Positions 47,657 through 55,748 of a stretch of DNA of 64,000 nucleotides are shown in pieces. Numbering within the stretch: the first letter of the stretch is position 1; each line of letters begins with the position of its first letter. Under the pieces are notes generated by a model. That model was not told the origin of the DNA. It made no database searches and saw nothing but the letters and a program-made list of their open reading frames with translations. This DNA is from an uncultured Gammaproteobacteria bacterium (lineage in GTDB: Bacteria > Cyanobacteriota > Vampirovibrionia > LMEP-6097 > CAYGPN01). The stretch covers positions 95,823-159,822 of the forward strand of contig CAYGPN010000001.1 of NCBI GenBank assembly GCA_964352085.1. Reading direction: 5' to 3'. A program made the position numbers and the translations under genes.

Positions 47657-49429
47657 ATGTCAAAAAACATCAAAAAAATAGTCCAAACAGCAGCCTTAAT
47701 CATGATTATGGCACTTAGCATAGGCTCAGCTGAAGCAATAATCGCATTTGGCTTAAGTAATGGCAGAAGGCTAAATCTTGATGGTAATAATACTTTTGAT
47801 ATAGATTTTGAAATTACGGACACTAAAGCAATTAATGACCATCAAACAGAATTGACTTTTAAGGTAAAAGATCTTCAAGATAAAGGTGATGTACTAAATT
47901 TAGCTTGGGACCTTATTAGAAGTGATTCTTCAATAGATAGAATTACTGACTTCAGTGATGTAGCAGGTGTAGATAAAAGTGTTCAAGCAATATATAGCGA
48001 AAAAGAACTCAATGATGGTGTGCTTATTACTGTTGAAGTATATAGAGGAACAGGACCAGATGCAGCTGAGCACAAAGTAAAAAGAATTAGAAAGAATGCT
48101 GCAGGCGAAATAACAATAGTAGATTCATCAAGAAGTGAACTATTATCCAATGATATAAGAAGCATAAACACAAGCTATAGAACAGTCCCAGACACTCAAC
48201 AATTCAGCTCTACCGGCTTTAATACATTTAGAATTAATCCTGGTAAAAATACTTTGGATCTAGATATTACCGTTAAAAGTTATACACATCATGGTGACAA
48301 TATTAATTACGCTCCAGAGTTTGTAAGAATTGAAGTAGAAAATCAAAGAGGTGTGGTGATTATCAATAAAACATTTACTAATGATAATCCAACATTTGGA
48401 GCTATGCCATTTGTAAATGTTCAAGACTTTAATTTCAAAGTAAAACTAGAAGGACTCAGAAGCTTAGATTCTTATAATTTTAAGTTAATTACAAATGAAA
48501 AATTTCCAGTCACGTTTCACTCACCATTATTATTTGAAACAAGGATAGAAGCAGTACAAAGCTTTATAAGCCCTGAAAGCACAGAAAGCGACAGTGAGAA
48601 TGAAGCAGATAACAGTACTGGTAATGGTTCTGAAAACAATGATGAAACTGATAATAATGGCGATACGGATGCTGATGAAGTTAATGATGGCGAAGTTTGT
48701 GGTCAAGGTTTCACCCCAGGTTCTGGGACAATTAATACATGCGGAGATCCAGATAATTCGGCTGATGACGAAACAACTAATGATGGATCAGAAGATACCG
48801 GAAGCACTGGCGGTGGATCAGGAAACACGGAAAGCACAACTGGTAGTGGATCAGGCGACACTGGAAACACTGGCGGTGGATCAGGTAGCACGGGAAGCAC
48901 TAACGGTGGATCAAACGATACTGGATCAACAGATAATGATACAGGAACAGATGATGATGAGATAGAAACAAGAGACGAAGACCGTTTTGGTGATGAGACA
49001 GAGACAAATATCCCAAACAATGATGATCAAGAAATTAGTGAAACTACAGTAGTAATTCCAAATAGAAACAATCCAAACACCGGAGAAATAACTCTAGTAA
49101 TATCAGAAGGTGAAAACAGAAGCTTAAAAGCCGGTGAAGAACTAACTTATCAGATCAAAGTAAATAGCAAGATTTTTAAATTTGACAAATATAAAAAGAA
49201 AGGGACAGCTATAGTAGGAAATGACGGTTTACTTAAACTTGAAACACTAAGTTTTAAGGAAAAAAGAAATAAACAAAGAGTAGCTAAACTTTTAAAGTCA
49301 CAAGGTAAGCTAAAGCTACTAAAAATAACTATTCGCGAAAAAGAGAAATCAAGAGTTTCAGTTAAACGTGGCGAAAGACCTAAGAAAATCAATAAAGTTA
49401 TTAGCAAAGAAACTATAATTCTAGACTAG
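47657..49429 (+). CDS. secreted/surface protein P1 (590 aa): signal peptide, beta-rich region, acidic G/S/T/D/N linker, basic C-terminal domain
   Basis: Signal peptide ...MALSIGSAEA. Linker GSTGGGSGNTES... The C-terminal roughly 130 aa align with the C-termini of P2 and P3. Confidence 0.85.
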   Translation: MSKNIKKIVQTAALIMIMALSIGSAEAIIAFGLSNGRRLNLDGNNTFDIDFEITDTKAINDHQTELTFKVKDLQDKGDVLNLAWDLIRSDSSIDRITDFSDVAGVDKSVQAIYSEKELNDGVLITVEVYRGTGPDAAEHKVKRIRKNAAGEITIVDSSRSELLSNDIRSINTSYRTVPDTQQFSSTGFNTFRINPGKNTLDLDITVKSYTHHGDNINYAPEFVRIEVENQRGVVIINKTFTNDNPTFGAMPFVNVQDFNFKVKLEGLRSLDSYNFKLITNEKFPVTFHSPLLFETRIEAVQSFISPESTESDSENEADNSTGNGSENNDETDNNGDTDADEVNDGEVCGQGFTPGSGTINTCGDPDNSADDETTNDGSEDTGSTGGGSGNTESTTGSGSGDTGNTGGGSGSTGSTNGGSNDTGSTDNDTGTDDDEIETRDEDRFGDETETNIPNNDDQEISETTVVIPNRNNPNTGEITLVISEGENRSLKAGEELTYQIKVNSKIFKFDKYKKKGTAIVGNDGLLKLETLSFKEKRNKQRVAKLLKSQGKLKLLKITIREKEKSRVSVKRGERPKKINKVISKETIILD

Positions 49430-49618
49430 AATTTATCAAAATAATAAACCTCGCGACTTCCTAAAATCATAGGTAAACACACTGACTCCGCTAGAAAGGA
49501 GCTTTAACAAGTAGAATAAATGGACTAGTCAAGTGAAGAAGACCTTAATCTAGCCTTAATTAAAACAAGATAATATGCATTATCTGGGATTTAAGGAAGC
49601 CAGAAAGGGAGTACAATC

Positions 49619-55400: not shown

Positions 55401-55748
55401 AGTCTAGATGCTAATAAAGTAGTAGCCTACAGAATCAAACCTCACAAATCAGTCAAAATTCCTAGAAAGGAAAGATTCGGTCTTGTTCAATTTAACGATG
55501 CAGGAATTGGACAGCTAGAAGCTGATATAGACTACTTAATTAAGTCTGGTAAACGTGGTAGACGTGCTGCTAGAAGACTAGAGAAGAAAGGTAACACTCC
55601 TTTATTCAAGATCTTCTTAAGAGAAGTACCTGCTAGCGTTCAAGAGCTAGATACAAGCAAGAGAAAACAAAGACGCAAGTTTAGACGCAATTTTAATCGT
55701 GCTCGCAAGAACCTTGCTAAAGATATAATCCGACTAAACGCTAATTAA
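52443..55748 (+). CDS. secreted/surface protein P3 (1101 aa): 3x about 145-150-aa repeats with CP(N/S)C motif, 2x about 141-aa repeats, (PT)n linker, basic C-terminal domain
   Basis: Signal peptide ...SYSAASAEA. Repeats start near 53006, 53442 and 53892, and near 54318 and 54741. Confidence 0.9.
   Translation: [1101 protein letters not shown]
55141..55250 (+). repeat. in-frame Pro-Thr dipeptide repeat (about 6-bp periodicity)
   Basis: Encodes [36 protein letters not shown]. Confidence 0.9.

Follow-up and report, generated by a model that had tools for sequence, protein, structure and literature searches.

Architecture of the three tandem genes

Three tandem genes, referred to here as P1, P2 and P3, were analysed in a stretch of 64,000 nucleotides (the window) of contig CAYGPN010000001.1, assembly GCA_964352085.1 (positions 95,823 to 159,822 of the forward strand), derived from an uncultured bacterium. 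The encoded proteins differ in their N-terminal passenger regions and end in a shared, highly basic C-terminal domain (CTD), which is the main subject of this analysis. The open reading frames (ORFs) coincided exactly with those reported in the initial annotation of this DNA, namely P1 at 47657-49429 (590 aa), P2 at 49619-52249 (876 aa) and P3 at 52443-55748 (1101 aa); these genes and all their features described below lie on the plus strand. The P1-P2 gap is 189 nt and the P2-P3 gap 193 nt, and a GGGAG-type Shine-Dalgarno sequence was recognised by eye upstream of each gene. A hairpin followed by a T-run is present in the sequence just 3' of the P3 stop codon (55766..55803, plus strand, with the inner stem flagged on the minus strand), and it is likely to be the terminator closing the cluster.

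The signal peptides were recognised by reading the sequences directly. In P1 the signal peptide covers aa 1-27 (MSKNIKK-IVQTAALIMIMALSIG-SAEA, cleavage before I), in P2 aa 1-36 (...LFISILFTFLVAV-PAQA, cleavage before V) and in P3 aa 1-25 (cleavage site AEA, before V). All three show the features of Sec-dependent substrates of signal peptidase I: the n-region is basic, the hydrophobic core spans 13-16 residues and the cleavage site is of the AxA form. A lipobox cysteine was found in none of them. In each protein the N-terminus was the sole segment with a hydrophobicity of membrane-helix grade. The cleavable-looking signal peptides noted initially were thus corroborated for P1, P2 and P3, and the CTD does not occur mainly in proteins devoid of such peptides (3/3 carriers have one).

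The passengers are of different types. The P1 passenger (aa 28-330) is an orphan, beta-rich region with an isoelectric point (pI) of 4.7. P2 contains a PKD domain (50399..50629, aa 261-337; PF18911, E=2.3e-14) that scored above the gathering cut-offs of both PF18911 (53.6 bits, cut-off 27) and PF00801 (34.3 bits, cut-off 23.5). It is followed by three internal Ig-like repeats of approximately 104 aa each (50639..51583, aa 341-655), for which the Pfam matches were sub-threshold (Big_9, E=0.0023; cadherin, E=0.054). The PKD domain and the three repeats described earlier for P2 were therefore recovered, whereas their designation as cadherin-like depends on these sub-threshold matches. P3 carries five internal repeats, as had been proposed: three of approximately 146 aa (52998..54320) with the motifs GFEFGV...CPxC...LPEVV...GNDVSN, and two of 139 aa (54321..55157) with the motif NVCDPAxNxC[LI]PFTG.... 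When the P1 and P3 passengers were searched as one concatenated query against protein sequences at word-index sensitivity, no relatives were returned, and the P3 passenger was likewise an orphan. The relatives of the P2 passenger were exclusively generic PKD repeat proteins covering 10-69% of it, and none of them carried the CTD. P2 thus resembles the PKD/Ig-like repeat surface proteins of bacteria and archaea in its passenger, and differs from them in its C-terminus, while P1 and P3 differ in having passengers without relatives at the sensitivity used. No orthologues of the three passengers bearing another, informative C-terminal anchor were found.

Low-complexity linkers of the composition described in the initial annotation separate the passengers from the CTD. 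The P1 linker (aa 331-485) is rich in G, S, T, N, D and E and very acidic (net charge −34). In P2 (51584..51919) the linker consists of (GGGNT/GGGTT)n in tandem units of 15 nt, followed by a short acidic stretch, and in P3 (55128..55370) of (PT)n in units of 12 nt, again followed by an acidic stretch. The linkers of P2 and P3 are encoded by in-frame tandem DNA repeats (15-nt units at 51578-51783 and 12-nt units at 55131-55244, respectively). Slippage at these repeats could vary the length of the stalk. The exact locus was found on three Logan contigs (ERR3534977, ERR3534996 and ERR3534978), each 100% identical to the window, so that there was no linker-repeat variation among the sampled contigs.

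The charge of these proteins is unevenly distributed. The mature P1-P3 are acidic (net charge −22 to −41, pI 4.6-4.8), with passengers plus linkers at pI 4.1-4.7, whereas the CTD cores are basic (net charge +19 to +29, pI 10.3-11.3). An acidic stretch lies directly upstream of the CTD in all three proteins. Of the 279 ORFs with 200 aa or more in the window and 41 related metagenome loci (see below), only P1-P3 combined basic last 100 aa (at least +19) with an acidic remainder (−48 or lower).

The shared C-terminal domain

The CTD cores were delimited in P1 (49112..49426, aa 486-590; net charge +19, pI 10.3), P2 (51920..52246, aa 768-876; +29, pI 11.0) and P3 (55371..55745, aa 977-1101; +20, pI 11.3). 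The alignment across all three proteins that had been proposed from the sequences alone was upheld, with a marked difference in distance between the members. The CTDs of P1 and P2 were 46% identical over 141 aa (E=7.5e-18). In the 105-aa core of this pair, 53 residues were identical and 32 of these 53 were encoded by different codons; synonymous sites were saturated (pS 0.76), while pN was 0.31. The saturation at synonymous sites, combined with the lower pN, points to an old duplication kept under long purifying selection at the protein level and not to a recent copy. P3 is more distant, as its tail matched that of P2 with E=0.038 only in the pairwise BLAST comparison. A hidden Markov model (HMM) built from P1 and P2 alone scored the P3 tail at 16.4 bits, collinearly over approximately 100 residues; among 2000 composition-preserving shuffles of this tail the maximum was 12.3 bits, and none reached 16.4. 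Conserved glycines and hydrophobic positions aligned across the three CTDs. By these scores, the P3 CTD is a remote homologue and a member of the P1/P2 family. No cysteine is present in any of the three CTDs.

AlphaFold2 models were calculated for the P1 and P3 CTDs with the three-sequence alignment as input. A folded core with a pLDDT of approximately 80 was predicted at residues 41-140 of the 140-aa P1 query and at residues 22-135 for P3. The order of the predicted elements was equal in both models: one strand at [YF]xIK[PV], then a short one, a third following the KKKG/RFG turn, another short strand, a helix (QRVAKLLKS in one of them), a long strand and a final strand. The P1 model can be summarised as four strands and one helix followed by a long hairpin, the latter composed of two long strands (E103-117 and E126-138). 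In P3 a 9-residue Arg-rich insertion, predicted to be helical, takes the place of the distal part of this hairpin. The models suggest that the basic tail folds into a domain and is not disordered. The 35-40 residues N-terminal to the core were predicted to be disordered, and the folded core comprises approximately 100-125 aa. The domain itself was thus retained, and its original size of 130-150 aa was not.

The ends of the two 139-aa repeats of P3 (aa 703-749 and 844-895; approximately 54549-54689 and 54972-55127) share the pattern DTATxIFExEL...NxGxYxLxIEVxNPxGLExIQHG and weakly resemble the lead-in of the P1 and P2 CTDs, at a conditional E of approximately 0.04-0.06, which is not significant. 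Judging from this pattern, the disordered lead-in of P1 and P2 may be the remnant of a similar Ig-like repeat.

A further possibility is that the three CTDs pair or trimerise, e.g., through the long hairpin, into a hetero-oligomeric surface structure. Such co-assembly would agree with the presence of exactly three carriers, adjacent, co-directional and regularly spaced, as well as with the two-stranded hairpin predicted in P1. It is nevertheless unlikely, since domains with charges of +19 to +29 would repel one another unless bridged by a polyanion, and the P3 model has helices where the distal hairpin would be expected.

The CTD was not recognised by any of the resources used, in agreement with its initial description as an unrecognised domain. 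Pfam and NCBIfam assigned no family to it, either in the full proteins (E<=1) or in the CTDs alone (E<=10), and these thresholds apply also to the T9SS (type IX secretion system) CTD models (TIGR04183, TIGR04131 and PF18962), none of which matched. A search of PDB sequences with the CTD profile returned noise only. Foldseek comparison of the P1 and P3 models with PDB, and of the P1 model with BFVD, gave nothing at E<=0.001. The best PDB match of the P1 model had E=0.13 and a template modelling (TM) score of 0.26. For P3 the best PDB matches had E=0.04 and TM scores of 0.38-0.45 and were the Ig-like sandwiches of MSP and complement MG domains; the best BFVD matches of P1 were MC1 and SSB proteins (E=0.038, TM score 0.13). 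Weak Pfam and NCBIfam matches to GroES/Cpn10 (E=0.004-0.09), the CjCas9 PI-CTD and PilP were rejected, as each occurred in one of the three members; the GroES/Cpn10 match, the only one with listed coordinates, falls mostly in the disordered lead-in.

Each of the anchor and sorting types considered earlier (LPXTG, PEP-CTERM, T9SS CTD, autotransporter barrel, SLH and LysM) was checked, and none of them described the CTD. No Pfam match was obtained for an autotransporter or other beta-barrel anchor (PF03797 or similar), and the C-termini (...TIILD, ...EKESN and ...RLNAN) lack the terminal aromatic beta-signal, the core being approximately 100 aa long with lysine-rich faces. The LPXTG, PEP-CTERM and GlyGly-CTERM models of NCBIfam did not match; no PEP motif and no C-terminal LPxTG were found, and the only LPxTG-like string was LPFTG at aa 637 of P3, inside a repeat. 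In the last 150 aa the maximum 19-residue Kyte-Doolittle mean was 0.36-0.67, which is too low for a hydrophobic helix at the C-terminus. Pfam also gave no match to SLH, LysM, OmpA-like, GW or SH3b wall-binding modules. Since the C-terminus is neither membrane-spanning nor of the sortase type, these proteins, if attached at all, would be held non-covalently or in some novel manner. Taken over Pfam, NCBIfam, PDB and Foldseek, there was no match to a described sorting or anchor family.

The distribution of the CTD was extremely narrow. An exhaustive profile search covering 1.84 billion representative proteins gave three entries: P1 itself, a copy of P2 truncated at its N-terminus, and a repeat protein (P0003) that is an artefact, without an aligned stretch. 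A word-indexed protein search with the CTD alignment returned nothing, not even P1 or P2, and its sensitivity for a lysine-rich query is doubtful. Pattern-plus-tblastn scans found no CTD in 185,579 GTDB species genomes, in JGI metagenome contigs or in IMG/VR, nor did tblastn against plasmids and phages, and no further carrier was present in the rest of the window. Exact P3 was absent from the protein collection, which accordingly lacks some proteins of this genome, and more carriers are possible there. The carrier search with an HMM suggested in the initial annotation, run here on public collections, thus yielded no carrier besides P1-P3, all of which have signal peptides. Its wording of a lineage-specific domain turned out to be an understatement, as 1.84 billion proteins, four DNA collections, plasmids and phages yielded nothing beyond the three adjacent genes. 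On this sequence evidence, the CTD defines a new family of domains, whose three known members all belong to one uncultured species and are borne on a familiar type of modular secreted protein.

These data bear directly on the proposal that the CTD directs secretion or sorting in the manner of a T9SS CTD, being read by an outer-membrane translocon or sortase that is dedicated to it and encoded in another part of the genome. The architecture invites the comparison. The T9SS cargo proteins of Bacteroidota (TIGR04183/PF18962) combine a Sec signal peptide and unrelated passengers with a beta-rich C-terminal fold of approximately 80-100 aa, and one tag is common to several cargo genes. In P1-P3 a mostly-beta C-terminal fold of approximately 100 aa likewise stands behind a linker on Sec cargo with unrelated passengers, and the weak top fold matches of P3 are Ig-like sandwiches. 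For T9SS cargo, LPS-dependent surface attachment (LPS, lipopolysaccharide) has been described as an outcome in Porphyromonas gingivalis and Cytophaga hutchinsonii (bioRxiv 10.1101/2020.07.16.206169; PMC12860637). In contrast to T9SS cargo, the CTD of P1-P3 is without a sequence or fold match and extremely basic. No T9SS CTD structure was among the top 50 Foldseek PDB matches of either model, and both models contain a helix, unlike the seven-stranded Ig-like sandwich looked for. The number of carriers is three rather than tens, and no relatives were found in any database searched, whereas sorting systems are normally conserved across wide lineages and serve many cargos. None of the T9SS machinery genes (PorK/L/M/N, Sov, PorU/V), and no other machinery gene, was found within the 64 kb. 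A sorting function, one of the possibilities raised in the initial annotation, is thus disfavoured and, as far as the 64 kb of this genome allow a judgement, improbable, and the T9SS likeness would be an analogy of architecture only.

Genomic setting of the cluster

The cluster is flanked on the left by an ABC transporter permease gene (46743..47567, minus strand) and on the right by a 66-aa ORF (MQSPTLTKNEKQQIANRINYFRTLP...; 55942..56142, minus strand), both conserved in relatives. A total of 41 related metagenome loci were recovered via the permease (identity 36-76%), and three of them (L093, L098 and L099) retained both flanks. The identity of these three to the window was 67-73% for ribosomal protein S4 (rpsD), 67-68% for the permease, approximately 60% for MetRS and approximately 51% for PBP2. 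On the left side, L098 and L099 have the order MetRS, Kdo transferase, LpxK, Nudix, PDZ and S4, while L093 begins at Nudix. The interval from S4 to the permease measures 480-510 nt in the three loci and contains the 66-aa ORF, which in relatives is always located between rpsD and the permease gene; in the window the same interval extends over 8.8 kb and includes P1-P3. Beyond this interval all three continue with the permease and an ABC ATPase, L099 as far as DnaX, and L093 through DnaX, a second ABC ATPase and PBP2 to iPGM.

No P1-P3-like or CTD-like product was encoded in any of the 41 loci. From the gene order, P1-P3 would represent a lineage-specific insertion of approximately 8.3 kb between the end of the permease gene (47567) and the 66-aa ORF, with these two genes as its edges. 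A loss of the cluster in all sampled relatives is possible and less parsimonious. The comparison thus indicates a novelty at the species or genus level, placed in a housekeeping neighbourhood. Recent horizontal transfer is not supported, because the GC content, the GC content at third codon positions (GC3) and the codon usage of P1-P3 match the remainder of the window and the surroundings of the cluster contain neither an integrase nor a tRNA gene.

The window also contains dnaA, comEC, dnaX, a PBP2 gene, lpxK (58477-59502) and a Kdo transferase gene (59477-60832). The host should make LPS, because both LpxK and the Kdo transferase are encoded in the window, and the gene content indicates a diderm containing peptidoglycan and LPS. 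A gene for a NYN-domain protein (60886-61518, minus strand) lies between those for the Kdo transferase and MetRS. It is missing at this position in L098 and L099, where the latter two genes are approximately 40-50 nt apart, and judged by this comparison it is a second small lineage-specific insertion.

Candidate function and remaining features of the window

On account of the PKD domain, the Ig-like repeats and the orphan beta-rich repeats, P1-P3 look like Sec-exported modular surface or extracellular proteins resembling adhesins or binding proteins. The order of passenger, linker and C-terminal module is the usual one in anchored or substrate-bound modular proteins. The analysis establishes how the proteins are built, that their CTDs are homologous and under purifying selection, that each protein is a charge dipole, that LPS genes are present, that the family is extremely restricted phylogenetically and that the cluster is positioned like an insertion; a location at the surface, the ligand and an anchoring function are inferred. 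The interpretation we favour, which we put forward tentatively, is that the CTD serves as a non-covalent polyanion-binding foot, most likely for the anionic inner core or lipid A of LPS on the producing cell itself, and holds the acidic heads at the surface. Both the charge dipole and the LPS genes in the window are consistent with anchoring through polyanion binding. The proposed mechanism would involve an acidic head plus stalk (pI 4.1-4.7) joined to the basic, mostly-beta CTD by a flexible linker of variable length. The CTD would bind a negatively charged surface and thereby keep the protein attached without a covalent bond. The likeliest such surface would be offered by the producer's LPS, at its phosphate- and Kdo-rich inner core or its lipid A region. 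Repulsion would push the acidic linker and passenger outward, so that three different heads could be displayed on a common foot.

Basic modules with a role like the one proposed here are known from monoderms. The GW modules of Listeria InlB and Ami and the C-terminal regions of Lactobacillus S-layer proteins are basic, non-covalent and largely electrostatic anchors on anionic polymers. They share with P1-P3 a basic C-terminal module on a secreted protein, the anchoring role being known for the former and proposed for the latter. They differ in their monoderm hosts, in their teichoic or lipoteichoic acid ligands and in the fold, GW being an SH3-like repeat, whereas P1-P3 have no Pfam match to GW, SH3b or SLH and their host makes LPS.

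Several points weigh against the LPS-anchoring interpretation. The absence of a significant fold match means that no ligand can be transferred by homology, and the CTD models are to be taken with caution, as they were built from only three sequences. No secretion machinery is encoded in the window, which leaves the route across the outer membrane without a candidate there. The likeness of the first conserved block of the CTD to the hairpin of an anti-LPS factor (discussed below) is no better than its composition predicts (p=0.03-0.2). Finally, a basic surface would be equally suited to DNA, to acidic polysaccharide or to the surface of a prey or host cell.

The last point leads to a less probable, still appreciable alternative, in which the CTD is a cationic module for an external polyanion, such as extracellular DNA or an acidic exopolysaccharide matrix, or for the envelope of a prey or host. 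The variable heads would then add specificity or an enzymatic or adhesive function, in the manner of a carbohydrate-binding module (CBM) behind a PT linker. The charge and architecture data fit this alternative equally; PT- or G-rich linkers before a terminal binding module are classic in CBM-type proteins, and among the top non-significant Foldseek matches are MC1 and SSB, DNA-binding proteins that are basic and possess beta-hairpin arms. Among the full-length DnaX matches listed from GTDB reference genomes, the nearest came from a metagenome-assembled genome of Vampirovibrio, a predatory lineage, and from one other metagenome-assembled genome, at an identity of only 34-35%. However, the loci of these DnaX matches showed no synteny to the window, and the taxonomic assignment is weak, with S4 least like chloroplast S4 among the PDB matches. 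Moreover, no sequence or fold match was significant, and no pointer to predation or to a matrix was found in the window.

The LPS-binding hairpin of animal proteins offered another comparison. In anti-LPS factors, alternating basic and hydrophobic or aromatic residues are clustered on a beta-hairpin (PMC10672452); that of the horseshoe-crab factor, LALF32-51, has the sequence HYRIKPTFRRLKWKYKGKFW (PMC7795859). The pentapeptide YRIKP is identical in LALF32-51 and in the P3 CTD. The CTDs differ from LALF, a eukaryotic immune protein, in their fold context and in the lack of a disulfide clamp. The alignment scores of the CTDs to LALF32-51 were matched by 3-20% of shuffles, and no anti-LPS factor was among the PDB sequence matches of the CTD profile. 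A relationship to anti-LPS factors was accordingly rejected on account of the shuffles and the absence of cysteine in the CTD, and on the sequence comparison the likeness would be at most convergent. It is rather unlikely that the CTD is a newly evolved module for LPS or lipid A convergent with the animal factors, by which a diderm attaches acidic adhesins to its own outer membrane without covalent bonds or targets those of other Gram-negative cells. If it were so, surface display would be achieved independently of sortase and barrel.

We also considered a cationic, membrane-active effector similar to antimicrobial peptides, which the acidic pro-region or linker would neutralise until its release onto the LPS-bearing outer membranes of competitors or prey. 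Basic and hydrophobic residues do alternate along the strands of the CTD, the basic domain is directly preceded by an acidic segment in three of three proteins, as in the pro-peptides of defensins and cathelicidins, and there is a likeness to LALF32-51 at the level of motifs (YRIKP in P3 and Y-IK...K-KYK-K in P1). This likeness was not significant against shuffles, the absence of cysteines leaves no disulfide-clamped loop, the predicted globular fold buries the hydrophobic faces, and neither an immunity gene nor a processing site was evident. An effector function therefore seems very improbable.

Should the CTD tether proteins to LPS by charge alone, as in the anchoring interpretation, it would amount to a compact, portable display tag of approximately 100 aa for Gram-negative bacteria, and also to an example of a surface-protein foot arising and spreading inside one genome. 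As it stands, the cluster is a well-delimited case of very young or very fast-evolving novelty in putative surface proteins within a conserved housekeeping neighbourhood. With neither conserved machinery nor wide distribution, the CTD is not a general system, and it opens no long-standing question.

Several other features of the window were recorded. Runs of large ORFs occur at 10492-17751 (plus strand), 19740-22784 (minus strand) and 32277-37570 (plus strand); they comprise ORFs of 1180, 303, 863, 1014 and 1093 aa and three of 160-225 aa, none of which has a Pfam family or a signal peptide. In the block at 10492-17751, GC3 was 0.16-0.175 versus approximately 0.25 elsewhere. These runs could consist of orphan genes of a structural or effector-like kind, or form an island of foreign origin. 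A gene for a HipA-type toxin kinase (HipA_C and HipA N-terminal domain) is located at 22877-24133 on the minus strand. An IS200-like Y1 transposase ORF (565-1434, minus strand), approximately 3 kb from dnaA (4360-5838, plus strand), is unusually long at 288 aa, with the domain confined to aa 9-120. The gene following dnaA encodes an FAD/NAD oxidoreductase and is not dnaN. A 226-aa ORF at 38581-39261 (plus strand) resembles a signal peptide at its N-terminus and is rich in Cys in its C-terminal part.

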